A stretch of DNA of 64,000 nt from Bacteroidales bacterium (GCA_020438135.1 JAGQVF010000083.1:4415-68414), one strand, 5' to 3'; positions 3,306 to 64,000 are shown, numbered from the stretch's first letter. Notes: generated by a model not told the origin, from the sequence alone. Made by a program: numbers and translations.

Positions 3306-6300
3306 TTTAACTGTTGGCTTGCATCTCCTCCGAAGAGTATACGATTTATATGCACGAACATATACTTGTCGATCTCATACACATGGCCTGCGGTTTCAAC
3401 TACCAATCCTGCTCTTTTCATAAACCGGATATTCTTTTCAACGGTTTCTTCGTTGTCGAGTGTTACCCTTTGAAGTTTTTCGAAACTGAGTCTTTTGTGA
3501 AAGATAAATTGCATCAGGTATAGCCTGATGACCGGAGGTAATTCTTTCAGAATAGTTAAATCAGGCATTTCAGGAGATTTGATCTCAATCTCCTTTCCGT
3601 TTACACCGGTAATGTTAGCCACCCAGGTAAGTAAAGCAATTCCTATGTTTCCACCGGTATAATTGAAATATCTTGAGAATAACCGGGCCGTTTCCGAGAC
3701 GTGGAAAATACCGGATTGTTTGTTTTTCATTTTCATTGTAAAGCCGCTTGTCCGGTGCCTGAAGAGGATCACGTCCTGAAGTTGTTTCGAATTCATCGGT
3801 TCAAGGTCGATGATGTTGAGGAAATAACGATTGATTTCGATCATTTGGTTGATCACCTCAAAACTTTGTGTGTTTACCGTTATCATAAACAACTGCCTGT
3901 TGCCAAATTTCTGAAGTATGTCGGCCAAACATTTGATCACCTCAAGTCCATTTTCGGTTTTTTCCCACCATAATTCGAGGTTGTCGATGATGATCAGCGA
4001 GTTTTCGTGCAACCTGGTGAATATATTAAGGTAAGGTTCAAAAATTCCTGTAGCCTCCTGTAGTGCATTCGTAAAAGTATTTACCTCGGTGCTTCCACCG
4101 GTGGGTACCTGAATGTAATATGTATTTTGATTGTTGAACTGCGCAGATGCGATATAATTGACGAAAAAGGTTTTTCCGCTGTTTTGTTCTCCACGAACAA
4201 GAATTGCTCCTGAAAATCCACTGGAATGCCGGTTGATGGCTTTAACGGTTTCCTGTATTTCTTTTTCGCGGTTAAACCAGAATTCGTTCTGGTAGTTAAA
4301 TTTGCGAAGGAAAAGTTGCTGGTAATAAAACGGAAGTTTGTCAACCACCATTTTCGAAGGTGAAGTTTTTTCCCTGATATTTAACAGTGCATTTACTGTT
4401 GAGCCTGACTTATTGCCCGATTCAGCCACTTTTCGGGCAAACAAAATGGCGTCACTTTTCCGGTGCCACAACTGTGCGGATTTACGTTTGATGTTTTCGT
4501 TCACTGACTTGAGCCGCTGTGGTATAGTTTTTTTCACCTTGCCGGTTTTCCTGAGATACCTGCGGTATTTTTCAGGAGTTTTAAGGAGTTTGTAAATTGT
4601 CAGATCATCCAGTGTACTTTGCATATCTTTCAATAGCTTAACACGCAGATCATCCACAATTGCATCGACGGCTTTTGTTTCCGCTTTGGCCGTTTCTTTC
4701 TGTTCCCTCACAAATTCAAGATAGGTATTGTCGTCGTAAATAAAATCCTGTTCTTCAGAAACCAGGTCATTCCTTTTGTTGCCGAAGCTGATCCGCCTGA
4801 TGGTATCTCTCACATTTTCCATCGAATCGAGTACCTGACCGGCTAGTTTGCCTGTTCCGTCGATCATGGGTTCAAGGAGGTTTCCCTGGATATAGTAATC
4901 GACCAGTTGAAGGGTGGAAAGTTTAACTGTTTCCGTTTCTTCAAATAAAGTATTTGTAATGGTATTAAAAGATTCGGTGCTCAGAAATTCAGAGGTTCGC
5001 GGAAGTTTATTGATCACTGTTTTAATATTCCGGAAAGCTTTGTCAGTGATCTTATCGATGGAAAGCTGGAGTTCGTGTCTGCCCGGTAATTGCATTTCAA
5101 AGGCAGGTATTTGTTCACCTGTCTTTTTACCCGATTCAAGGCTTTCAACATACTCTTCAAGCTTCGCAATGGTTTTTTCAGCTTTCATGACAACATTTTC
5201 CTGAACAACCGTTTCGATTTCGGAAAGTGATTCAGCTATGGTTTTGTTTACCCTGTATTTTATTTGTGCAATTCTGATATCAACATGGGCGGCATTATGC
5301 AACAGTATCAGTTTTTCTGCGAGGAATACAGGGGCTTTTTCAAGCTGTGAAATGAGGCTTCTTACCTTGTGGGCCGGGTATTCATTCATGAAGTAATTGG
5401 CAGGTATTTTTGAGGCGATGCCATTCATTTCGTCGGTTGCCCTTGAAAGTGCTTCCATTAAGCTGGCGATCAAAATACCGGAAGATACTGAAGAAAATGA
5501 AGTGAATTTCCTAAGTGCTGCCGCTATTTTTTCTTTTTCTTCTTTCATTCTTACATCGCTGAACTGTACTTCAGGTTGCAGTTCAAACAGGGTGAAACTT
5601 CTGTTTACAATATCGATCAGTTTTTGAAATTCAATGACTGATTCTACCTGCAACCTTCCGTATTTATCGAGAGATTTAAGAAGGTTGTTATATACGTTAA
5701 TGGGTATCTCACTTCTGACAAGTTTTCTTAACCTGAAATGATAATTGATCCCGCGTTTCTTTTTCTTAGAAGAATGTATTGTTCGTTTCCAGGATTTGAA
5801 AAGCCTGCTTCGCGGATGATCGGCCATGTTCTTTTCCAGGTCTTTGCCAAAATAAGTAACGTTGATGCTGGCAGGTACCAGGTCGGCAGTATTTCCAATC
5901 CGGTTAATCAGGTAATTGATTCCGTTGCGAATTGTTTCGGTTTGTTCTCTGATGGTTGTTTTGTACATATCCTCAGGGATACGGGCTGCCTTGATCAGGA
6001 AATTGATCTTTAATGCAGAGATGATCCTGAGTCGCTGTTCTTGTTGTGCTTTCCTGAAGCTTTGTGATTGAAAAGTGCTGAAGATGTCTGTCACCATATG
6101 ATCAATGGTGAGGTTTACATGACGGTGGAAATCCATGGCAGGTTCCATATAGCCGCTCTGAAACTCGTTTAATATGCGTGAAAAAGCAGATAACTGGTTT
6201 TTTATTTCAATTGCCAGTTCTTCCTGCTCAGGGAAGTTTTCTTTGTTCATAAACACCGGATCGGTTGCTATGGCAAGGTCACTGTCTTTTTCAATTGAAG

Positions 6301-53377: not shown

Positions 53378-54046
53378 TTGATCAGGGCAGAAAAAATAGT
53401 TAAATCTTTCGGCAAACTCAAGGTTCTCAAAGGCATCGACCTCGAAATAAAAAAAGGGGAAATTGTTTCGGTGGTAGGTGCATCAGGTGCCGGCAAATCA
53501 ACTTTGTTGCATATTATCGGAACCTTGGATAAACCCGACAGTGGTGATATTTTGTTTGATGATAAGCGGGTTGGTGCAATGAATGATAATCAATTGTCGG
53601 CATTCCGAAACAAACACATCGGTTTTGTTTTCCAGTTTCATCATCTTTTACCGGAATTTACAGCGATCGAAAACGTAAGTATGCCGGCTTTTATCGCCGG
53701 AATGTCGAAAAACAAAGCGCTGAAAAGGGCAGAAGATTTATTGGCATATCTCAATCTTTCTGAGCGAAAAGAGCACAAACCGGCTGAATTGTCAGGCGGC
53801 GAGCAGCAGCGGGTTGCTGTGGCCCGTGCACTGATCAACGATCCGGCAGTGGTGCTTGCCGATGAGCCTTCCGGCAACCTTGATTCAGCTTCTGCCCGGG
53901 AACTGCACGAGTTGTTTTTTAACCTTAGAAAAAAAATAAACCAGACTTTTGTGATCGTTACGCACAATGATGAACTGGCTGATATGGCTGACAGAAAGCT
54001 GGTTATCACTGATGGCGTGATATCTTCCGGCATAACGAAAAAGTAA
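53378..54046 (+). CDS. lolD: Lipoprotein-releasing system ATP-binding protein
   Basis: An in-frame TTG start at 53378 gives [24 protein letters not shown], matching LolD N-termini. Walker [13 protein letters not shown] signature LSGGEQQR, Walker B VVLADEP. The ORF-track GTG at 53288 would overlap the divergent gene. Confidence 0.85.
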
Positions 54047-54109
54047 AATAATTGAAGGGCATTATCGTTTCATACCATATTCAAAAAAAGTAAACATTTA
54101 TCAGGATTC

Positions 54110-57091
54110 ATGTTGTTCAGGAAATCTATCATATCCCTCTTTTTACTGCTGTTGATTGCGCTGTTACCGGGGGTTGTATCGGGACAGGATAACACCGGAG
54201 ATGCATATGCCGAAACCATACATCAGGCGGACAAATATTTCGCTGAGGGAGACTATATCAAAGCCAAAACTTCTTATCAATATGCCACCCGGTTGAAACC
54301 GGAAGAAGCATACCCGAAAGACCGTTTGCGGGAAACCATCGATAAACTTCGCGAAAAAATGGCTTTGATGGAACAATATACAGCCCTGATAACACAGGCC
54401 GATGAACTGTTTCGTGATAATGAATTTGATGCTGCAATTAAAAAATATGAAGAAGCCGGTAAAATGATCCCTTCGGAAGGTTATCCACAGGAAAAGATCG
54501 AACAAATAGAAGCGCAAAAATCGGCGCACCGTAAGTTGCAGGTGGCTTATGACGATGCCATCTACCGAGCAGAAAAATACGAGAAATATAAAAAATACGA
54601 AGAGGCCAAAACGGAATATGAAAAAGCGCATGAGGTATTCCCGGATGAGCCTGTACCAGCCCAAAAAATCGGGGAGTTAACCCAACTGATTGCAGAGGTT
54701 AAAAAGGCAAGAGAACTGTACGATGAGATCATAGCCAATGCCGACCGGCTTTTTAATCTGAAATATTACGAAAACGCCAAACAGGAATACCAGAAAGCCT
54801 CCGAAGCCAAACCTGATGAAGCCTATCCGCAAGCACAAATAAAGGAAATAGAAACATTACTCGTAAAGAAAAACGAATACGACGGTCTGGTTGAAGCTGC
54901 CGACGAAAATTATATGAACAAAAACCTGGAGGATGCCAAAAGTAATTACCAGGCTGCCCTTAAAATTTATCCTTCCGAGAGTTATCCGAAAGACATGATC
55001 GATAAGATCAATAATGCACTTCTGGAAACAAGGGGAGAGGATGATGTGTATGCTGAAAGCATTCAGCAGGCCGATGCCTTCCTGGCTGCCAAAGACTACA
55101 CCAATGCACTTAAGGAATATGAAAACGCCTCCGCCATTAAACCTTCCGAAAGTTATCCCAAAGACAAAATTGCTGAGATCAATTCCATTCAATCATCCAT
55201 GGAGGCTGACGAAAGTAACTATCAACTGGCAATTAAGTTAGGCGATCAGTATTTTGCCGGGAACGATTTTGAAAATGCCAAAAAAGAATACCAAAAGGCG
55301 CTCAACATTAAAGCAGATGCCGAATATCCCGCAGATCAACTCGCTCTGGCAAATAAAGCCCTGAAGGAAAAGAAAACCCTGATGGCTGGTTATGATAATG
55401 CCATTGCTGAAGGCGATGCCCGGTTGGAAGAAGGGAAATATGCCGAAGCACGAAATGCCTATCAAAATGCCCTCGAAACGTTGCCGGGAGATGTTTATGC
55501 AACCGGACAGATCGAGAAGGCCGACCGGCTCGAAAAAGCGTTAAAAGAAAAGGGAGAGCAATACGTTACAGTCATTGCAGCGGCCGATAAATTTTTTGCA
55601 GAAGGAAACTACCAGGAGGCGAGAAACAAATACAATGAGGCACTTAACCTTGACGAAACCCAAAGCTACCCAAAGGAAAAGCTAACTGAAATCGAAACCC
55701 TATTGGCACAACAAAGAGAGCTTGAAAACAACTATGCGAGGGCCATTGCATCGGCTGACCTGTTTATGGGGAAAGAGGAATACGAACAGGCGCTGAAAGC
55801 TTATCAGGAGGCTCAAAGTATCAAACCGGCCGAAAGTTATCCCCAGCAAAAGATAGCTGAGATCAATTCACTGTTCAGAGAGCAGGCTGATGCTGAAACA
55901 CAGTATCAGGAAACCATCAAAGAAGCTGAGGGATTGATGGCGCTCAAACAGTACGACAAAGCCAAACTTGCTTTTATGAAAGCCGGTAATATGAAACCCG
56001 GGGAGGCTTATCCACGCAATAAGATCGACGAAATTGAAACATTGATCGCACAGGCTGAAGCGCAGCAGGCAGAATATAACCAGGTGGTGGGTGCTGCCGA
56101 CCGGTTGATGGATGCAGAAGATTTCGATAAAGCACGTGAGCGTTACGAGCAGGCTCTGGAGGTGATTCCCGGTTCGCAATATCCGTTGGATCAGATCGAA
56201 AAAATCAACAATATCATTCTGGCTAACGAACTGGCCGTACAGGAATCGTACAATCAACTGATCGATGAGGCCGATGCCTTGTTTGCTTCACAATCGTATG
56301 CTGAGGCCAGGCTGAAATATAAAGAGGCTTTGAAGTTTAAACCCGGGGAGGATTACCCGGTACAAAAACTTTCGGAGATCGAACGTGCTATGAATGATCT
56401 CGAAATGCTGCAGACCAAATACAACAAACTGGTGAACGAAGCCGATCGTCTTTTTACTTCAAAAGATTACCAGGCAGCGAAAGAGAAGTACCGCGAAGCA
56501 TCAGTTTTATTCCCTGAAGAAATTCATCCCAAAGACCGCATCGAAGAGATCAATCTGATCTTCAGGGCTGCTTCTGAGAAAAATCAGGAAGCTTATGACA
56601 AGGCCATTGCTGAAGCCGATAAATTCCTGGCCGGAAAAGAATACGATCAGGCCATCAATGCATACCGTAATGCACAGTCGATTATGCCGGATGAAAATTA
56701 CCCACAATCGATGATTGATAAAATTTTGTCGATCCTTGAAGCCAATGCACAGCGTAAGATTTTAAACAGTACGATTACCATACTTAATAATGAACAGGAA
56801 AAGTTCAGTTTCGATCCTGTATCTGCTGCCGACAGCAAATCGAGCATATTGCATATCCGTGCACGGGGTATGGCTGTTAAGGAATTTAAAGTAACAGTAA
56901 GTTACGGTAAAGGTGGTTCCAAAAACGGGGGTTATGTTTTGCCCATCCCACCCGGAAGTGAATCACGTGAATTTATCATTCCCCTTGGCAATCAATATAC
57001 CTGGTATTCCGAAAACAATAACTGGATATCTCTTACACCGCAAGGAGGGACTGTAGAGGTTGAGTTGATTGAGATCACAAGAGGTGAATAA
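54110..57091 (+). CDS. Secreted protein with 15 tandem ~58-aa TPR-like helical repeats and a ~130-aa beta-rich C-terminal domain
   Basis: Signal peptide LFLLLLIALLPGVVSGQ. Each repeat follows Y..hI..AD.hF....Y..A...Y..A....P.E.YP..KI.EI. The 15 anchors are EEAYPKDRL, SEGYPQEKI, DEPVPAQKI, DEAYPQAQI, SESYPKDMI, SESYPKDKI, DAEYPADQL, GDVYATGQI, TQSYPKEKL, AESYPQQKI, GEAYPRNKI, GSQYPLDQI, GEDYPVQKL, EEIHPKDRI and DENYPQSMI. Confidence 0.8.
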   Translation: MLFRKSIISLFLLLLIALLPGVVSGQDNTGDAYAETIHQADKYFAEGDYIKAKTSYQYATRLKPEEAYPKDRLRETIDKLREKMALMEQYTALITQADELFRDNEFDAAIKKYEEAGKMIPSEGYPQEKIEQIEAQKSAHRKLQVAYDDAIYRAEKYEKYKKYEEAKTEYEKAHEVFPDEPVPAQKIGELTQLIAEVKKARELYDEIIANADRLFNLKYYENAKQEYQKASEAKPDEAYPQAQIKEIETLLVKKNEYDGLVEAADENYMNKNLEDAKSNYQAALKIYPSESYPKDMIDKINNALLETRGEDDVYAESIQQADAFLAAKDYTNALKEYENASAIKPSESYPKDKIAEINSIQSSMEADESNYQLAIKLGDQYFAGNDFENAKKEYQKALNIKADAEYPADQLALANKALKEKKTLMAGYDNAIAEGDARLEEGKYAEARNAYQNALETLPGDVYATGQIEKADRLEKALKEKGEQYVTVIAAADKFFAEGNYQEARNKYNEALNLDETQSYPKEKLTEIETLLAQQRELENNYARAIASADLFMGKEEYEQALKAYQEAQSIKPAESYPQQKIAEINSLFREQADAETQYQETIKEAEGLMALKQYDKAKLAFMKAGNMKPGEAYPRNKIDEIETLIAQAEAQQAEYNQVVGAADRLMDAEDFDKARERYEQALEVIPGSQYPLDQIEKINNIILANELAVQESYNQLIDEADALFASQSYAEARLKYKEALKFKPGEDYPVQKLSEIERAMNDLEMLQTKYNKLVNEADRLFTSKDYQAAKEKYREASVLFPEEIHPKDRIEEINLIFRAASEKNQEAYDKAIAEADKFLAGKEYDQAINAYRNAQSIMPDENYPQSMIDKILSILEANAQRKILNSTITILNNEQEKFSFDPVSAADSKSSILHIRARGMAVKEFKVTVSYGKGGSKNGGYVLPIPPGSESREFIIPLGNQYTWYSENNNWISLTPQGGTVEVELIEITRGE

Positions 57092-57196: not shown

Positions 57197-58096
57197 ATGG
57201 ATCGAAAATCATTTCTTAAAACATTAATGGCTTTTTCTGCAATGGGAACACTCAGTAGTTTTAAACTTTTTACGGATAATCTTCCGATACAGGATCGGAA
57301 GATGCCTGTACTTTTTACATCGCATGGGAATCCGATGGATATACCTGTCGATAGAAGTGAGCGGGCTTTTTGGCAAACTTTGTTTGAGCTTGGAACCGAC
57401 CTGAAAAGTAATTTCGATATCAGGGCGGCGCTTGTTGTTTCGGCGCACTGGTGCACCGAAGGTACATTTATCAATATCTCTCCTGAACAAAAACAGATTT
57501 ATGATTACTATGGTTTCCCGGAACATTATTACGACCCGGTTTATCAGGCAAAAGGATCACCAGCGATAGCCGGCGAGGTAAAAAAGATTGTGCCTGATGT
57601 AAAGGAAACCACCGATTGGGGTCTTGATCACGGTGCCTGGCCCATGCTGATGCACCTTTTTCCTGAGGCAGAAATTCCCGTATTTCAGATGAGCATTCAT
57701 TATTATGCAAATCCTGAATATCATTACAACCTTGGAAAACAATTGAAATCTTTGCGTGATAAAGGAGTGCTGATAATCGGGAGTGGTTCGCTGGTGCACA
57801 ACCTCAGGCTGGCCGGACAAAAAATGCGAAACAACGATATGACTCCTTATGGCTGGGAGGCTGAATACGATGCCTGGATCAAAAAGCAGATCGATGAACG
57901 CAACACGGAAAATATCATCCATTATGAAACCAGCCATAAACTTGGTAAATTGGCAGCTCCGACTCCCGATCATTATGTGCCTGTGCTTTACAGCCTGGGT
58001 TTGATGGACAAACAAGACGAGATCAGCTATTTTTACGAGGCTCCGCCTGCTTTGCCTGCATTCAGTGAACGGAGTTTCATTATTCAGCGCAGATAG
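57197..58096 (+). CDS. LigB-family class III extradiol dioxygenase (4,5-DOPA dioxygenase/YgiD-like) with N-terminal Tat-like signal
   Basis: The core starts MPVLFTSHGNPM, followed by VVSAHW, YDYYGFP and WGLDHGAWPML. A 35-aa N-terminal extension reads MDRKSFLKTLMAFSAMGTLSSF. Confidence 0.85.
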   Translation: MDRKSFLKTLMAFSAMGTLSSFKLFTDNLPIQDRKMPVLFTSHGNPMDIPVDRSERAFWQTLFELGTDLKSNFDIRAALVVSAHWCTEGTFINISPEQKQIYDYYGFPEHYYDPVYQAKGSPAIAGEVKKIVPDVKETTDWGLDHGAWPMLMHLFPEAEIPVFQMSIHYYANPEYHYNLGKQLKSLRDKGVLIIGSGSLVHNLRLAGQKMRNNDMTPYGWEAEYDAWIKKQIDERNTENIIHYETSHKLGKLAAPTPDHYVPVLYSLGLMDKQDEISYFYEAPPALPAFSERSFIIQRR

Positions 58097-58295
58097 CTTT
58101 CAAATTTATCCAATTCCTTACACAGTTCAAATAAAGGTCTGTTTCTGCTAAAGCGAAAACTTTTACCCTTGAGGGTTACTTTTTTCCTTTGCCTTGTATA
58201 AACATATGGTAAGGCAATACATTTATTATTATGTGACAGGCCATTTATTCTGCGTAGTTAGCGGTTATGTCAACATCAAATCAGGGAGTTTAGGT

Positions 58296-58730
58296 ATGAC
58301 CATGTCAAAACAAACCGAAAAACGAATCAGGGAATTAATTCAAATCACTGAACAGGCAGCCGAAGGTTATCTTGACCAAAAAGCTGAACTCACCGAAAAT
58401 AATGACCTCCTCGACGAACTGGCTTCCGGGGTAAATCAACTCATTGAGGCTTGCCGTGAGACCACCGAAAACATGATCAATACACGGGATAATCCCGATC
58501 CCTACTTTGAAGTGGCGCGTTCGTGGATCGATGAAATGCGCGAGAGGGCAAGGATGCATGCTGATGCTGGAAAATCGGATGAAGACCTGATGAAACGGAT
58601 CAGGGAACTGGAACAACGCAACAGCGACCTCGAAAGGCTAAATCATCTTTTTATCGGCCGCGAATTCAGGATCAAGGAGTTGCGGAATAAAATCGAAATG
58701 TTGAAGAAAAAACTTAGTGAAGGAGCTTGA
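58296..58730 (+). CDS. Small helical protein ending in the LFIGREFRIKEL coiled-coil motif
   Basis: I prefer the ATG at 58296 (MTMSKQTEK..). The C-terminus RIRELEQRNSDLERLNHLFIGREFRIKELRNKIEMLKKKLSEGA matches the C-terminus of the PAS protein at 59142..62342. Confidence 0.65.
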   Translation: MTMSKQTEKRIRELIQITEQAAEGYLDQKAELTENNDLLDELASGVNQLIEACRETTENMINTRDNPDPYFEVARSWIDEMRERARMHADAGKSDEDLMKRIRELEQRNSDLERLNHLFIGREFRIKELRNKIEMLKKKLSEGA

Positions 58731-58863
58731 TCCCTTTTACCTTGAGCTTTTTTATGTGTTAAAAATCAGGGCTTTATAGTTTTAGATTTCGGATTTGTTA
58801 AGAAACATTAAAATATTCAATATTTCTGTTTGTTTTATAAAAAAATTGTATTTTCGCATCATT

Positions 58864-58948
58864 GAAGCGGGGCTACATCCTTCAAAAATTGGTTTTGGTT
58901 AATAATTAGGTTTATTCTTTTCTTCTTTCTGCCCCGCTTCTTTTTTTT
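58864..58948 (+). terminator. GC-rich 10-bp stem enclosing 57 nt, followed by T8 (terminator-like, or a small-RNA 3' end)
   Basis: gaagcggggc (58864..58873) is the perfect complement of gccccgcttc (58931..58940). T8 follows at 58941..58948. A near-consensus -7 box TATTTTCG lies at 58849..58856, with TTTG at 58829..58832. Confidence 0.4.
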
Positions 58949-59141
58949 ATCTTTCGAATGTTTTCCCCTTATAACTTCATCTGAATATCAGATTATACTT
59001 CTGCGATAATTACTTGTTTCGATTGGGGTTAGTTGTTGATCATCTTTCTGAAAACCAATGCATTTATTTGTTCCTTTAAAAGCGTTTAGGGGTCATAAAG
59101 AATTTACCACCTGCTGAAATGTGTTTTAACTTGAATGGGAT

Positions 59142-62100
59142 TTAGTCGTTGCTTAACCGGGCTTCTAACAGTTTGATCTGGTCTTTCAGCTCTTTAATTC
59201 TGAATTCGCGACCAATAAACAATTGGTTAAAACGCTCCAGTTCATCATTTTTTCTTTCCAGTTCTGATGTGCGTTCCTGCACCAGTTCCTCGAGGTGTTC
59301 TTTGTGTCGGAGCAATTGTTTTTCACTCTCTTCTAATTTTTTTTCTGCCTGTTTACGTTCGTGTATATCAGCAGCATTTATTAATACCAGTCTGGGTTTG
59401 CCAGCTTTATCAGGAAGTGGTTGAAGACTGTTCCTGAACCATCGCAATTCACCCCTGATGAATGTTTGTGATTCGATTACTATTCCCTTACCGCTGGATA
59501 ACACTTTATGAATTTCTGCCATCTGTTTGCCTGCGATGTCTGCAGGGAAAAGTTCCTTCATATGTTTACCGACCATTTTCGGCGGGGAAATATGAAAGGC
59601 ATCCGCAGCCGATTGATTTGCAAAATGAAATATACCGTCCTTGTCAACTGTAAATATGGCCGACTCAAAGCTTTCAGTAACAGTGCGATATTTCTCCTCA
59701 CTGTCATGCAATGCTTCATCAGCATTTTTGCGATCGGTAATATCGCGGAAATTAATAACAATAGCATGAATGTTCGGCACCATTAATAAATTGCTGAAGG
59801 TGCTTTCGAGCCAGCGATATGGGCCGTTTTTGTGTTTGAACCTGTATTGAATGGTAGGTACGTATGAGGGATCTTTTATTAGTTTTTCAATTTCAGATAA
59901 AACCATCGGAAGATCTTCGGGGTGTGTCAGGTCATTGGGATCCTGAAGATGAGCTTCTTCAGGTGTATAACCAAATATTTTGGATACGGAAGGGCTGGCG
60001 TAGGTGAATTTGCCATTTCCATCGATCATTACTATTCCATCCGGTGCATGTTCGATCATTGATCTGTAGCGCTGCTCTGTTTGCCGAAGTTTTTCCTCCG
60101 CTTTTTTTCTTTCGGTGATGTCTACAATTTGTGCCAACAGACACTTTTCGTTATTGATCTCGATCGCTTCACCCCAAACCAATACTTGTCGTTCCTGACC
60201 GTTTTTAAGTTTGGCTGTGTATTCGGCGCCAATTACATGTCCGTTTGTTTGTAATTGTTCAATAAATTGATGGCGATCGTCCGGTTTTCCCCATATATCC
60301 AGTTCATCGGTACTGCGCCCGATTACCTCTTTTTTTGTAAATCCATACAAAGTGCAAAAAGCTGGATTTACATCAACGATTTTAGCATCGTTTAGCCGGG
60401 TAATTCCGATTGCAACGGGGCTGTTTTGAAAGACCGAAGCAAAACGAGCTTCGCTTTTAATAATCTTATCCTCTGCCAGTTTGCGATCAGATATATCCCG
60501 GGCTGCCGCATACAATGAGATTCCGTCGGGGGATGGGATTGCATTCCATTCAAGCCATCGATAATCACCATCTTTGGTTTTGTAGCGATTAATAAATTGC
60601 ATGGTATTTTTGCCACCGATCTGTCGTTCAATCTCCTTAAATGTCGGAATACGGTCATCGGGGTGGATAAATTCCGCAAGAGGTTTATCCATTAGTTCTT
60701 CTTTTGAATAACCTAAAACCCTTTCCCATTCGTTGTTAAGTTTTTTAAAATACCCTTCGGTAGAGGCAATACAGGCCATATCGGGTACCATGTTAAAAAA
60801 TCTTTCCAACTCCTCTTCGGCATATTTACGAACAGAAATATCCTGCAAAGTGCCTTTTAGTTTAATGACCTTACCATCCTCTGAAATTGGAAAACAAACT
60901 GCTCTGACCCATTTGCGTTTTCCTATCACTGTTGTCATTTCCAGTTCAAGGTCGTATGGTTTTCCATGGTTGAGAGCTTTTTTAAATGCCTTTTCCAGTT
61001 TTTTCTGGGAGCCGGGCTCAAAACGGCTAATCTCGACCTCTGATTTTGGGGTGTAGGATTTGGGGTCACGGTCGTGAATAGCATAAGTCTCATCCGTCCA
61101 AACCTGCTGTTGTGATGGTACATCGAGTTCCCAACCTCCAACCTTAGCAATTTTTCCCATTTCATTCAGCAGCAATTCACGGTCGCGAAGTGTTTGTTCT
61201 GCTTTTTTGCGGTCGGTAATGTTTTCTGCTACAAAACTAAATTGGGGATTTCCAGATTTTCCTGTGCCGATATAGGATGCTGTTGAGCCCAGCCAAATGC
61301 TTCCGTTCCTGTGTGGATATTCATACTCAAAATAAGAAGGTTCCCTTTCTGACATACAGCGCTTGAATTGTTCAACCCACATTCGCTCAAATTCTTTAGG
61401 ATTGCCCAGTTCCAATCCTGTTTTTCCTGGTAAACTTTCCCTGTTGAAATTTACAAATTCAGCGGTTGAGCGATTTCCGGAAACAGCTACCGTTTTATCT
61501 CCATCAAGCTCGGCAATACCCATCAAAAAAGGCGCACTATCGTAAAATGCCTCAATGGTTGCCTGACTTTGCCGCAGGCCTTCCTCTGCCAGTTTTCGCT
61601 CTGTAATATCATAATTAACACCTACCATGCGAACCGGTTTTCCCGCATCGTTGCGGAAAACCTGCCCATCGGCTTTAAGCCAGTGTGTTGAACCATCTGG
61701 CCACAACACCCGAAATTCAGTGTGATAATCTGCTTCACCTTTCACCGCGCGTACTGAAATTTCGTTGCTTGACTCACGGTCGTCAGGATGAACTCCATTA
61801 AGCCAGGCTTCATACGCTTCACCAAATTCGCCGGGTTGGAGCCCATACAAAGCATACATCTTATCATCCCAAACAATGGTATTGTTTTCAATATCCCAGT
61901 CCCAGATTCCTATCCCGGCTGAGCGATTGGCCAGCAGCGCTTTAAAACATTTGTCGCCATCAAATGGTGTTTCAGTTATTTCAAAAATATCGTTAATTGC
62001 CAAAACCAAACCTCCGGATTCATCCCTATTGCTGTTGAGGGGTGTGGCTATTGCTGAAACAGAAAAGGATTTGCCATTACTTTTTACAAAATGAAATGTG

Positions 62101-62342
62101 TCGGGGTGTAGTGCAACTTTCCTTTTCTTAAAAACCTGTTCGGAAAGAATAAATGTTTTTTTGCCTGGGTGATGATCTGTAAAACGAATAATGGTCCCGA
62201 GAGGCTTTCCTATAAGCTGCTGTTGCTGATATCCGGTCAGGCTTTCAGCTGCGGGATTTAACCAGGTTATTTTATCATGTTGGTCAGTTATGATGATCGC
62301 TTTTCCGATGGCGTGCAGAATATTCTCAGCGCTGTTTTTCAT
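59142..62342 (-). CDS. Multi-PAS (eight PAS/PAC modules) sensor protein with a C-terminal coiled coil and no recognisable output domain
   Basis: 1,066 aa. PAC-end/linker motifs recur about every 125 aa: YDITERKLAEE, ENITDRKKAEQ, QDISVRKYAEE, RDISDRKLAED, VDITERKKAEE, RDITDRKNADE, ADIHERKQAEK. The protein ends ...ELERKNDELERFNQLFIGREFRIKELKDQIKLLEARLSND. I see no H-box/HATPase, GGDEF, EAL, HD or HTH motif. Confidence 0.9.
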   Translation of the reverse strand: MKNSAENILHAIGKAIIITDQHDKITWLNPAAESLTGYQQQQLIGKPLGTIIRFTDHHPGKKTFILSEQVFKKRKVALHPDTFHFVKSNGKSFSVSAIATPLNSNRDESGGLVLAINDIFEITETPFDGDKCFKALLANRSAGIGIWDWDIENNTIVWDDKMYALYGLQPGEFGEAYEAWLNGVHPDDRESSNEISVRAVKGEADYHTEFRVLWPDGSTHWLKADGQVFRNDAGKPVRMVGVNYDITERKLAEEGLRQSQATIEAFYDSAPFLMGIAELDGDKTVAVSGNRSTAEFVNFNRESLPGKTGLELGNPKEFERMWVEQFKRCMSEREPSYFEYEYPHRNGSIWLGSTASYIGTGKSGNPQFSFVAENITDRKKAEQTLRDRELLLNEMGKIAKVGGWELDVPSQQQVWTDETYAIHDRDPKSYTPKSEVEISRFEPGSQKKLEKAFKKALNHGKPYDLELEMTTVIGKRKWVRAVCFPISEDGKVIKLKGTLQDISVRKYAEEELERFFNMVPDMACIASTEGYFKKLNNEWERVLGYSKEELMDKPLAEFIHPDDRIPTFKEIERQIGGKNTMQFINRYKTKDGDYRWLEWNAIPSPDGISLYAAARDISDRKLAEDKIIKSEARFASVFQNSPVAIGITRLNDAKIVDVNPAFCTLYGFTKKEVIGRSTDELDIWGKPDDRHQFIEQLQTNGHVIGAEYTAKLKNGQERQVLVWGEAIEINNEKCLLAQIVDITERKKAEEKLRQTEQRYRSMIEHAPDGIVMIDGNGKFTYASPSVSKIFGYTPEEAHLQDPNDLTHPEDLPMVLSEIEKLIKDPSYVPTIQYRFKHKNGPYRWLESTFSNLLMVPNIHAIVINFRDITDRKNADEALHDSEEKYRTVTESFESAIFTVDKDGIFHFANQSAADAFHISPPKMVGKHMKELFPADIAGKQMAEIHKVLSSGKGIVIESQTFIRGELRWFRNSLQPLPDKAGKPRLVLINAADIHERKQAEKKLEESEKQLLRHKEHLEELVQERTSELERKNDELERFNQLFIGREFRIKELKDQIKLLEARLSND

Positions 62343-62804
62343 AAGACATTTCTTAGATCAATTCAAAAGTTAGGAGTCTGTTACAGGATAGGGTAGATAT
62401 GATTCTATCGGATTGCCTGTTAGGTTTCGAATGTTAACACCATTTGGAAGGTGCTTTAATGTGTCGTTAATTTTCATATTCAGACTATCGATTTTTAGGG
62501 TTTACAAGGCACTTTGTTTTACATATCAGGAAATCTTCCTTCGTTATTCAGATGTCAATCCAAACTTTTGTTCATGCATACAGGCGAATGTAAAAAACTC
62601 CTGATTGAGAATTAAATGTACGATAAAATGTACTTTCGATTGCTTTTATCGAAATAACGATAACAGGGGCTGTTGAGTTTCAAAGTTCTCATGGAATTTT
62701 GCTTTATGTTTTAAATACTGTTTTTTCATTATATGTCTTTATTGTTTTCTTCAAACTAAACTAAATCTTGTCCAATTCCTTAATTTAATACCGGAATAGA
62801 AATT

Positions 62805-64000
62805 CTAAATCAATCCTTTCACTGTGAGCGAATGTTTAATCCGTTCGTGCCGTTCATAAAAATTTGAATTCAGAAGCTGAATCATCTCATCAAATCCCGG
62901 ATCGTTCTGCAGGTTATCCATCAGCGGATCTATGTCCAGAAAAAGAATAGTCCAATAGTTATATTTGTTGATTTCAGCAAACAACTTCAATTGTTTCAGC
63001 GCTTCTTCACTATTTCCTGAATAGGCATAATAAACGGCCAGGCTGAGGTTTTGATAAATCGACCTGTCGTTTTGCGCATAATCGAAATATTTCCTGAAAA
63101 GGGTATCAGCTTCCCCGGTTAATCCCATTTGATGGTACACGAAGCCAATCTTTGCGTTTTCATGCGAATAAATATCCCAGTTTAATTCTTCTTTAAGTGA
63201 TAGGAACCGTTTATAATATTTGAAGGATGCCGGGTAATTTCGTTGATAAAAGAACACTTTTCCGATCTCCTGCAGTACATCAAGACGCATGGTATCTCGG
63301 GCAAGTGTTTTCAGAAGGAGGTTTTCAGTTTGTTTCAGGTTTCTGTTGCGGGCATAAATAATATATGCTTTTACATAATGAGAGTAGATATTATTTGTGT
63401 CAAAATCCAGTGACTTGTTGATATATCTTTCGGCTTCTGCTATAAAACCCAACTGAATAAAAGCATTGGCGAGGTGCAGGTAGGTAATGGAAGTGGTTGC
63501 CGAGTCCTGGGCTCCTATATCGAGCCGGATGCCTTTCAGGGCATATTCGAGATATTTTTCCGAATCGGGTAATTGATTGGTATAATACTCAGAAAGTAAA
63601 TTGATTACGAAGGTAGAGTTGGGATTGTATTCATGTGCTTTTTCAAGGTAAGGAAGGGCCTGTTCATACTGACCCGTATTTGTATGGTATAGTGCTTTGG
63701 CGATGAGGCTTTCTACGGCATGTGAATCGTTGAACATGGCTTTGTCGGCAAAATAACCAAGTGAGTCCGTAAATGTTTTTTCCTGTTTAAAAATATCCAT
63801 GTAAAAATAAGCAATGGCCAAGTCAGCATAAGCAATTGCAAAAGTTTCATCTTCTTCAACCGATTTCCGGAACCAAGTAATTGATTTCTTCAATCCATCT
63901 GTAGTTCCCTGATTTAAGAAATTGCGACCTTTGAGATAATGGTCGTAAGCCTGAAGATTTTCAGTTGGTGGTTTATTGATCCTGTTTTGCTCCTGGGGTG
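62805..64000 (-). CDS. TPR-repeat protein, C-terminal part (5' end beyond window)
   Basis: The ORF track starts it at the TTG at 63893. The frame nevertheless stays open upstream to the window edge (...PQEQNRINKPPTENLQAYDHYLKGRNFLNQGTTDGLKKSITWFRK...). TPR-like units run throughout (e.g. GQYEQALPYLEKAHEYNPN). Confidence 0.75.
   Translation of the reverse strand, partial: PQEQNRINKPPTENLQAYDHYLKGRNFLNQGTTDGLKKSITWFRKSVEEDETFAIAYADLAIAYFYMDIFKQEKTFTDSLGYFADKAMFNDSHAVESLIAKALYHTNTGQYEQALPYLEKAHEYNPNSTFVINLLSEYYTNQLPDSEKYLEYALKGIRLDIGAQDSATTSITYLHLANAFIQLGFIAEAERYINKSLDFDTNNIYSHYVKAYIIYARNRNLKQTENLLLKTLARDTMRLDVLQEIGKVFFYQRNYPASFKYYKRFLSLKEELNWDIYSHENAKIGFVYHQMGLTGEADTLFRKYFDYAQNDRSIYQNLSLAVYYAYSGNSEEALKQLKLFAEINKYNYWTILFLDIDPLMDNLQNDPGFDEMIQLLNSNFYERHERIKHSLTVKGLI

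Follow-up and report, generated by a model that had tools for sequence, protein, structure and literature searches.

A conserved C-terminal coiled-coil tail of sensor-only bacterial proteins and its genomic linkage to a histidine kinase subtype

How can a sensor protein that ends without an output domain transmit its signal? The question is raised by a stretch of 64,000 nucleotides (nt) from a Bacteroidales bacterium (GCA_020438135.1 JAGQVF010000083.1:4415-68414; hereafter the window), in which the gene of a protein of 1,066 amino acids (aa) with eight PAS domains converges on the gene of a 144-aa protein with a related carboxyl terminus. The large protein carries the NCBI name 'PAS domain S-box protein' (P0249). 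Output-less proteins of this name are abundant in the genomes of anaerobes and are mostly left uninterpreted. A large subset of them has one and the same terminal helix across phyla, here called the tail. The tail defines a family with a strictly terminal position, input domains as its only partners, a distinctive pattern of conservation and a two-way genomic linkage to a subtype of HisKA kinases that bears a matching insert. The chances appear evenly balanced that the tail is a coiled-coil output module which docks sensor-only proteins onto this insert-bearing kinase subtype in trans.

The tail in the two window proteins

The features of the two genes that bear on the tail are the following, with the evidence for each in brackets.

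59142..62342, minus strand: gene of the 1,066-aa sensor-only protein, with eight PAS domains, a signaling helix and the C-terminal tail (open reading frame (ORF), TIGR00229, Pfam/NCBIfam)
59346..62342, minus strand: PAS array, the input part, about residues 1-999 (Pfam/NCBIfam/TIGR00229 matches)
59145..59345, minus strand: C-terminal tail module of the large protein, residues 1000-1066, a predicted coiled coil (BLASTP, motif mapping, AlphaFold2)
59268..59276, minus strand: ERT signature of the signaling helix (S-helix) in the tail of the large protein (GREFRIKEL begins 21 residues after it)
59187..59222, minus strand: core LFIGREFRIKEL of the large protein (motif mapping)
58296..58730, plus strand: gene of the 144-aa protein, predicted to be soluble and to consist of a HAMP-like region, a coiled coil and the tail (ORF; alternative annotated start at 58206)
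58578..58727, plus strand: C-terminal tail module of the small protein, residues 95-144 (BLASTP, motif mapping)
58647..58682, plus strand: core LFIGREFRIKEL of the small protein (motif mapping)

TIGR00229 (PAS S-box) matched eight stretches of the 1,066-aa protein. Pfam and NCBIfam recovered PAS families only, with no match of the protein to HisKA, HATPase_c, GGDEF, EAL or HTH, nor to cyclase, phosphodiesterase or DNA-binding families. A LOV Cys motif of the NCRFL type was not seen on reading the translation, no search dedicated to it having been made. The protein has no orthologue among the 5.8 billion proteins searched, and the best relatives of its PAS array are multi-PAS HisKA kinases with just 28-38% identity. 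The ERT signature of its S-helix reads LEELVQERTSELERKN and aligns with the S-helices of kinases in hhalign. The last 53 residues are predicted by AlphaFold2 as one continuous helix (residues 2-52, pLDDT 96).

The two genes are convergent and their stop codons lie 411 nt apart. Residues 1018-1064 of the large protein align in BLASTP with residues 95-141 of the small one (26 identities over 47 positions, E=7e-14). The 12-aa core is identical in both proteins, which reach their stop 14 aa (large) and 15 aa (small) after it, while the codons differ at seven of the 12 positions, by 8 nt in total and in every case synonymously. Among the 47 aligned codons, 26 specify the same amino acid and 16 of these do so by different codons; DNA identity from tail to tail is 57%, with 11 nt as the longest exact word in common. 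The codon differences and the low nucleotide identity show that the similarity does not stem from a recent DNA duplication or gene conversion and that it is the peptide that is conserved; the tail peptide is thus, to judge from its codons, under purifying selection. The first-pass annotation of this DNA had described the eight-PAS architecture without output domain, the similarity of the two carboxyl termini, the identical core with its seven synonymous codon differences and the selection acting on the peptide, and all of this was borne out.

Distribution and anatomy of the tail family

About 100 short proteins or fragments matched an initial profile built from three tails; those inspected read ...DITERK.AEEEL.KHREHLEELVKERT.ELEEKN.ELERFN.LFVGREFRIKELRD.VKELE.. 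and then stop. The module has a length of about 65 aa and is composed of a PAS linker, an ERT signaling helix and ELERFN.LFVGREFRIKELRD.VKEL. The layout of the family is one or more input domains, the S-helix, F[VI][GDN]REFRIKEL[RK] and a short carboxyl terminus. Both window proteins are among the members of tail profile A2 and carry LERFNQLFIGREFRIKEL or LERLNHLFIGREFRIKEL, matching the family core preceded by ELE.FN.LF.

An exhaustive profile search covering 1.84 billion cluster representatives gave 24,967 matches at E<=1e-3 and 3,391 at E<=1e-10, both figures being upper bounds since the profile also matches PAS linkers. The tail module is estimated to occur in about a thousand or more protein clusters from at least nine phyla, with several copies per genome. 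The core is present in 146 of the best 149 profile matches and ends 9-29 aa from the carboxyl terminus in 145 of these 146 best core-bearing representatives, none of which has a kinase or GGDEF signature. In the loci fetched, which derive almost wholly from metagenome-assembled genomes (MAGs), each of the 106 tail ORFs has its core at the end of the protein, 7-38 aa short of the stop codon (77 genome loci, locus L001 and the window), and no internal motif upstream of an output domain was found in 819 locus ORFs. The sole exception to a terminal core among these sequences is P0130 (931 aa), organized as REC-PAS-PAS-tail-linker-transmembrane segment (TM)-CHASE-TM-tail, that is, with two full units in one chain. 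P0165 (270 aa) has two tandem tail motifs in a single chain. These two-tail fusions may be Rosetta-stone hints of tail units working together. The lack of a catalytic output in the eight-PAS protein appears, from the sequences of its relatives, to be genuine and typical of the family and not the result of truncation.

In 185,579 species-representative genomes there are 394 exact matches to the string REFRIKEL[RK]. The MAGs that contain it belong to Bacteroidota, Cloacimonadota, Calditrichota, Marinimicrobia, Chlorobiota, Acidobacteriota, Thermodesulfobacteriota, Spirochaetota and Victivallaceae, and in some of them it is found at three to five distinct loci. When 98 representatives were surveyed with Pfam, only input domains came up: PAS in 81, REC in 13 and GAF in five, besides HAMP, 4HB_MCP, SBP_bac_3, CHASE, CHASE5, PocR, dCache_1, Phosphonate-bd and Tll0287. 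Proteins combining the tail with MASE11 or with REC were individually confirmed. The tail is not confined to soluble PAS proteins, because MASE11 proteins also bear it. A polytopic membrane domain is followed by the tail at L024 268-1113 and L085 1287-2132, the first of these products (L024_0) matching Pfam MASE11 with E=7e-11.

A divergent second subfamily of tails, also strictly C-terminal, has the consensus ELE[TS][FY].R[VA]T[VL][GD]RE[LE][KR][MV][VI]ELK[KQ]E[IV]NELLE..G....Y... and is found at L020 2403-3164, L063 7481-8152, L081 397-1356 and the carboxyl terminus of P0130. Its genes share loci with those of the REFRIKEL type. No entry of Pfam (2025), NCBIfam 20 or the PDB sequences covers the tail, coiled-coil noise being the only return (best PDB match SAS-6, E=0.007), and the strings REFRIKEL, GREFRIKEL, RELKMVELK, LLEDVNE and FSYSVSHDLRAPLR are in no paper of the literature searched. 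The tail family is apparently undescribed.

The first half of the tail is a signaling helix. S-helices carry their ERT signature at heptad positions c-d-e (PMC1592074). The Arg of G-R-E in the tail falls on position d, three heptads past the Arg of ERT, and hydrophobic a and d positions run on regularly to the end of the tail. The tail module has in common with the S-helix of that study a heptad coiled coil directly after PAS and, in the large window protein, ERT at c-d-e. It differs in that its S-helix does not lie between two signalling domains but is followed only by the 30-aa motif helix and the stop, and in that GRE, although it repeats the polar Arg at d, belongs to a motif absent from that paper (PMC1592074).

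Conservation over 144 representatives extends to all seven heptad positions, from the F(d) of ELERF to the D(f) after KELR. The exposed positions are included: F at f is found in 133 of the 144 sequences, K at b in 137 and E at c in 142. Since a plain dimeric zipper needs no conserved b, c and f positions, this pattern argues for an additional specific protein-protein interface. In the AlphaFold2 model made from a 79-sequence alignment, the helix of the tail is unbroken (pLDDT 96). This continuous helix speaks against a break or hairpin at the G/D/N position, although a monomer model is weak evidence on that point.

Linkage to insert-bearing kinases and mode of action

In hhalign the linker of histidine kinases matches the tail module with a probability of 97%. 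The match begins at the DITERK linker, includes ERT and stops at the Phe of ELE.F, and the kinase side has an extra insert. This match up to ELE.F indicates that tail proteins share ancestry with the sensor-linker part of kinases. Anchoring the two at ELE.F puts the tail Gly in the column of the phospho-acceptor His (F+6), a column that tail proteins occupy with Gly, Asp or Asn. Beyond the anchor, comparing the tail with the H-box helix by column profile gives negative scores whatever the offset, and Pfam HisKA does not match tail proteins even at E<=1. A degenerate relic of DHp or H-box was rejected, as there is no detectable homology: the profile scores are negative and hhalign stops at the anchor. 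At the profile level the REFRIKEL helix is no recognisable H-box relic. Tail proteins thus resemble HisKA kinases (PAS - S-helix - DHp - CA) in their input domains and linker up to ELE.F, but have neither the His, nor the second DHp helix, nor the ATP-binding domain. The helical hairpin and HATPase_c of DHp kinases are absent from the window proteins, which end 14-15 aa past the core and are modelled by AlphaFold2 with a single helix there. One tail protein, L060_3, has both the insert and the tail.

Two to four tail genes, mostly in tandem, are found in 23 of 80 sources (77 genome loci, L001, L002 and the window), and another tail gene follows immediately downstream of 23 of 102 tail genes. 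Convergent tail pairs are present only in the window and in L066 (2 of about 80 loci). Locus L001 has four tail genes within 5 kb. One of them (5001-5201) codes for P0063, a free-standing 66-aa protein with little beyond the coiled coil and the tail, and is separated by 24 nt from a preceding 431-aa PAS+tail gene and by 63 nt from the gene of a 5TM-LytS-PAS-HisKA kinase that follows. A conserved partner outside two-component signalling was ruled out by all-against-all clustering of the 819 locus ORFs, in which no family that is neither PAS nor two-component occurs in more than 6 of 78 loci.

The recurrent neighbour is a HisKA kinase. Its gene lies directly downstream on the same strand for 20 of 102 tail genes, against 11 of 301 at positions five or more genes away (odds ratio (OR) 6.4, p=1.7e-6), and for six of the 20 the gap is -7 to +5 nt. 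An insert of about 28-31 residues, SQ[QK]AL.[FYL]LLEDVNE.R.EL, is common to 16 of the 20 kinases; it spans four heptads between the kinase's own S-helix and the H-box ELE[AS]FSYSVSHDLRAPLR. LLED begins 35 residues ahead of the His in 19 of 23 insert-bearing kinases. Within the same loci a tail gene is directly upstream of 16 of 22 insert-bearing kinases but of only 4 of 32 other kinases (OR 18.7, p=9.5e-6). The genome loci having been selected for a tail, a reciprocal scan of metagenomes was seeded on [LF]LLEDVNE alone. It gave 15 loci; in six the kinase was cut by the contig start or lay 18 nt or less from it, leaving nine informative ones. In seven of these nine a tail gene is directly upstream of the kinase, in an eighth it is one gene away, and the ninth lacks one.

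Tail gene(s), insert-bearing kinase and a single-domain receiver of about 148 aa follow each other in a cassette that often includes a second, hybrid kinase. Stop and start codons frequently overlap between the tail gene and the kinase gene. The cassette is found in Bacteroidota, Cloacimonadota, Marinimicrobia, Acidobacteriota and Thermodesulfobacteriota. Examples are at L003 10243-14743, L024 1106-5555, L085, L088 and L089; their receiver has about 143-150 aa, ends in ...GLYWLL[LI]NE.. and is followed by a REC-PAS hybrid kinase of about 640 aa. The first kinase in L003 is 4HB_MCP-HAMP-PAS-HisKA-HATPase_c.

These data suggest the following mode of action. Each family member would consist of its input domain(s) followed by a parallel coiled coil formed by the PAS 'DITERK' linker and the ERT signaling helix. 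Three heptads past ERT stands the near-invariant F-V-G-R-E-F-R-I-K-E-L-R/K, and the protein ends 7-38 residues later. The tail, placed where an output domain would be, would work by protein-protein contact. Its likeliest target is the HisKA subtype with the SQ[QK]AL.[FYL]LLEDVNE.R.EL insert between S-helix and H-box. A tail dimer may pack onto the extended coiled coil of the kinase in a four-helix contact in which, going by the consensus sequences, the basic R..R.K..R/K face of the tail would meet the acidic E-D-.-N-E face of the insert. Such a contact is plausible because the two faces are complementary in a shared heptad register. Several independent sensors could in this way tune one kinase in trans. 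From sequence and gene order we infer the physical docking, the docking site and the effect on kinase activity with its sign. The two window proteins would be orphan members that act on an insert-bearing kinase encoded elsewhere, and they may bind each other as well by the tail helix.

Several observations weigh against docking onto this kinase subtype. About 60% of the tail genes (59 of 102) are not beside a kinase, and no kinase signature is present anywhere in the 64-kb window. The loci were chosen for their tails, and the reciprocal set is small with its nine informative members. Kinases and inserts were recognised by simple sequence patterns with a Pfam check of one example. The argument from charge complementarity is qualitative, and adjacency could reflect common operon descent rather than contact.

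The first-pass annotation had read the motif as an association module through which the large protein signals to its small neighbour or is titrated by it. Output by protein contact without catalysis is still the best reading of the tail, whereas a private link between the two neighbours was not supported. A dedicated interface of this pair is quite unlikely. Its identical cores, kept despite synonymous divergence, are no guide to it, as the core is equally identical in hundreds of proteins with several paralogues per genome and so says nothing specific about the pair; profile searches for the distribution and partners of the motif found it terminal and joined to input domains only, as described above, but far beyond these two genes. 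The non-random adjacency of tail genes throughout the family (23 of 102 with a tail-gene neighbour), the second convergent pair in L066 and the natural fusions P0130 and P0165 would suit such an interface. Set against them are the rarity of the convergent arrangement, just 2 of about 80 loci, the lack of an orthologue of the large protein and the finding that no tail gene lies beside that of L072_3, the only homologue of the small protein found, so that co-conservation of the gene pair in relatives was not observed. Genomic linkage makes the kinase subtype a likelier partner than the convergent neighbour. It is also what a pure self-association module, whose paralogous tails would bundle into mixed sensor assemblies (e.g. 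as dimers of dimers) with no docking to a kinase, leaves unexplained, namely the two-way linkage to insert-bearing kinases; nor does an assembly of input domains alone account for an output. Conservation of surface as well as core positions, expected if all paralogues recognise each other, tandem arrays of two to four tail genes in 23 of 80 sources and the existence of two-tail proteins keep self-association in consideration as an improbable, though not negligible, alternative.

The predicted plain continuous helix with heptad periodicity, together with the role of S-helices as dimerisation elements (PMC1592074), would also fit a mere structural cap that stabilises a parallel dimer while the PAS domains contact other proteins. 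A generic zipper, however, needs no invariant G-R-E-F-R-I-K-E-L with conserved b, c and f positions over at least nine phyla. The tail is moreover found on REC-only, HAMP-only and MASE11-only proteins, which offer no PAS surface, and the length after the core is tightly constrained, making a cap very unlikely. The genes could finally be truncated or decaying histidine kinases, pseudogenes or assembly artefacts, given that the PAS array finds its nearest relatives in full-length HisKA kinases and that homology to kinase linkers runs through the module as far as ELE.F. What comes after this anchor, however, is a distinct, highly conserved motif absent from kinases, hundreds of independent members end at the same place, and core substitutions are synonymous only. 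The 411 nt downstream hold no kinase remnant but a terminator-like hairpin. Family-wide conservation effectively refutes the decayed-kinase reading. The motif was not found to be a generic linker upstream of ordinary output domains, which would have suggested a truncated gene; its terminal position throughout the family bears out the first-pass view that a catalytic output is absent.

Sensors that end in a coiled coil and signal through a separate protein have precedents. The short LOV/PAS-only photoreceptors PpSB1-LOV and PmSB-LOV have a helical coiled-coil extension and no fused effector, and the effector of PmSB-LOV is a LitR-family regulator encoded next door (PMC4589677, PMC9758184). The tail proteins are similar in being PAS sensors with a terminal coiled-coil helix that would signal through another protein (PMC4589677, PMC9758184). 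In contrast, short LOV proteins consist of a single LOV domain and a short J-alpha helix, without a conserved motif of the REFRIKEL type or a link to a kinase subtype, while the tail family puts one tail on many types of input domain. In the RetS-GacS system a histidine kinase is controlled in trans by helix-helix contact at the dimerisation region and not by phosphotransfer (PMC8498467). Trans control of a kinase through helix contact is what is proposed for the tail, but RetS is a full kinase-like protein that uses its DHp, whereas the tail is a single terminal helix pair whose proposed site lies upstream of the DHp of the kinase (PMC8498467). The tail family belongs to neither system and fails every defining DHp feature. 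Output-less sensors acting via partners were already known; the new part appears to be the conserved terminal motif with the matching kinase insert.

It is tentatively proposed that the REFRIKEL tail and the LLEDVNE insert form an unrecognised modular 'plug and socket', in which thousands of sensor-only proteins with PAS, REC, GAF, HAMP, Cache, CHASE or MASE11 inputs would share a universal coiled-coil plug and one kinase would integrate many separately encoded inputs. If so, two-component systems would have a distinct input architecture that is common among anaerobic bacteria of sediments in many phyla. The signalling of output-less sensors and of REC-only and HAMP-only proteins would then be explained, the known bacterial signalling domains would gain a new transmitter module, and a portable coiled-coil interface would be available to engineer kinases with several inputs. 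The tail also gives annotators a simple rule to recognise the family and avoid calling such genes truncated.

The small protein and the surroundings of the gene pair

Two further features complete the locus.

58323..58457, plus strand: HAMP-like region of the small protein, residues 10-54 (weak Pfam/NCBIfam matches, homology to L072_3)
58864..58940, no strand assigned: perfect 10-nt GC-rich inverted repeat GAAGCGGGGC / GCCCCGCTTC with a 57-nt loop (arms 58864-58873 and 58931-58940), in the convergent 411-nt spacer

The NCBI annotation starts the small gene at ATG 58206 and gives it 174 aa (P0001). The region 58194-58295 offers two upstream starts, TTG 58194 and ATG 58206, which would extend the protein by a hydrophobic, Tyr-rich amino terminus YIYYYVTGHLFCVVSGYV. 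ATG 58296 is favoured as the better start on sequence grounds, because L072_3 aligns from residue 1 of the 144-aa form and AGGGAG is found 7 nt ahead of this ATG. A word-indexed protein search with the small protein recovered only itself. Its sole homologue found, L072_3 (152 aa, from a Bacteroidales MAG), surfaced among the fetched loci and shows 36% identity over 147 aa in BLASTP (E=2e-22). The direct Pfam HAMP (PF00672) match of the small protein is weak (E=0.06, 14 bits against a cutoff of 25), and NCBIfam BaeS matches its HAMP region with E=0.005; residues 10-54 of L072_3, aligned to the small protein, match Pfam HAMP with E=2e-9 and 38 bits. Through this homology to a protein with a bona fide HAMP domain, the small neighbour is assigned to the tail family as a predicted soluble HAMP-like, coiled-coil and tail protein.

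AlphaFold2 predicts helices at residues 5-32, 36-63 and 69-143 of the small protein, the two in the HAMP-like region each exceeding the canonical HAMP length. Foldseek with this model gave no significant PDB match (best E=0.9). The S-helix signature is degenerate, with KRIREL replacing ERT.EL (MKRIRELEQRN). In its own locus (L072 4418-9912) the gene of L072_3 is preceded, at a distance of 26 nt, by an unclassified 149-aa ORF and lies upstream of a 1,375-aa ORF. The latter begins with MKKILGLDLGTTSIGWAF and is presumably Cas9-like, as judged from its RuvC-I-type amino terminus.

A- and T-tracts flank the inverted repeat between the two window genes, with ATAAAAAAA ahead of it and TTTTTTTT behind. 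Its RNA fold has a minimum free energy of -22.6 kcal/mol (z = -2.7). A simple terminator scan missed it; it is likely a bidirectional terminator with an unusually long loop. An explanation at the RNA level was rejected, Rfam giving no match in 58000..62700.

The flanking genes are unrelated to the pair and code for a LigB-type dioxygenase (57197..58096) and TPR proteins (54110..57091 and 62805..63893). The first TPR protein has 993 aa, almost all in regular TPR-like repeats with a recurring '...YP.[DE]KI.EI...', and is unrelated to the tail. AT skew is strong (0.28) in 54001-56000.

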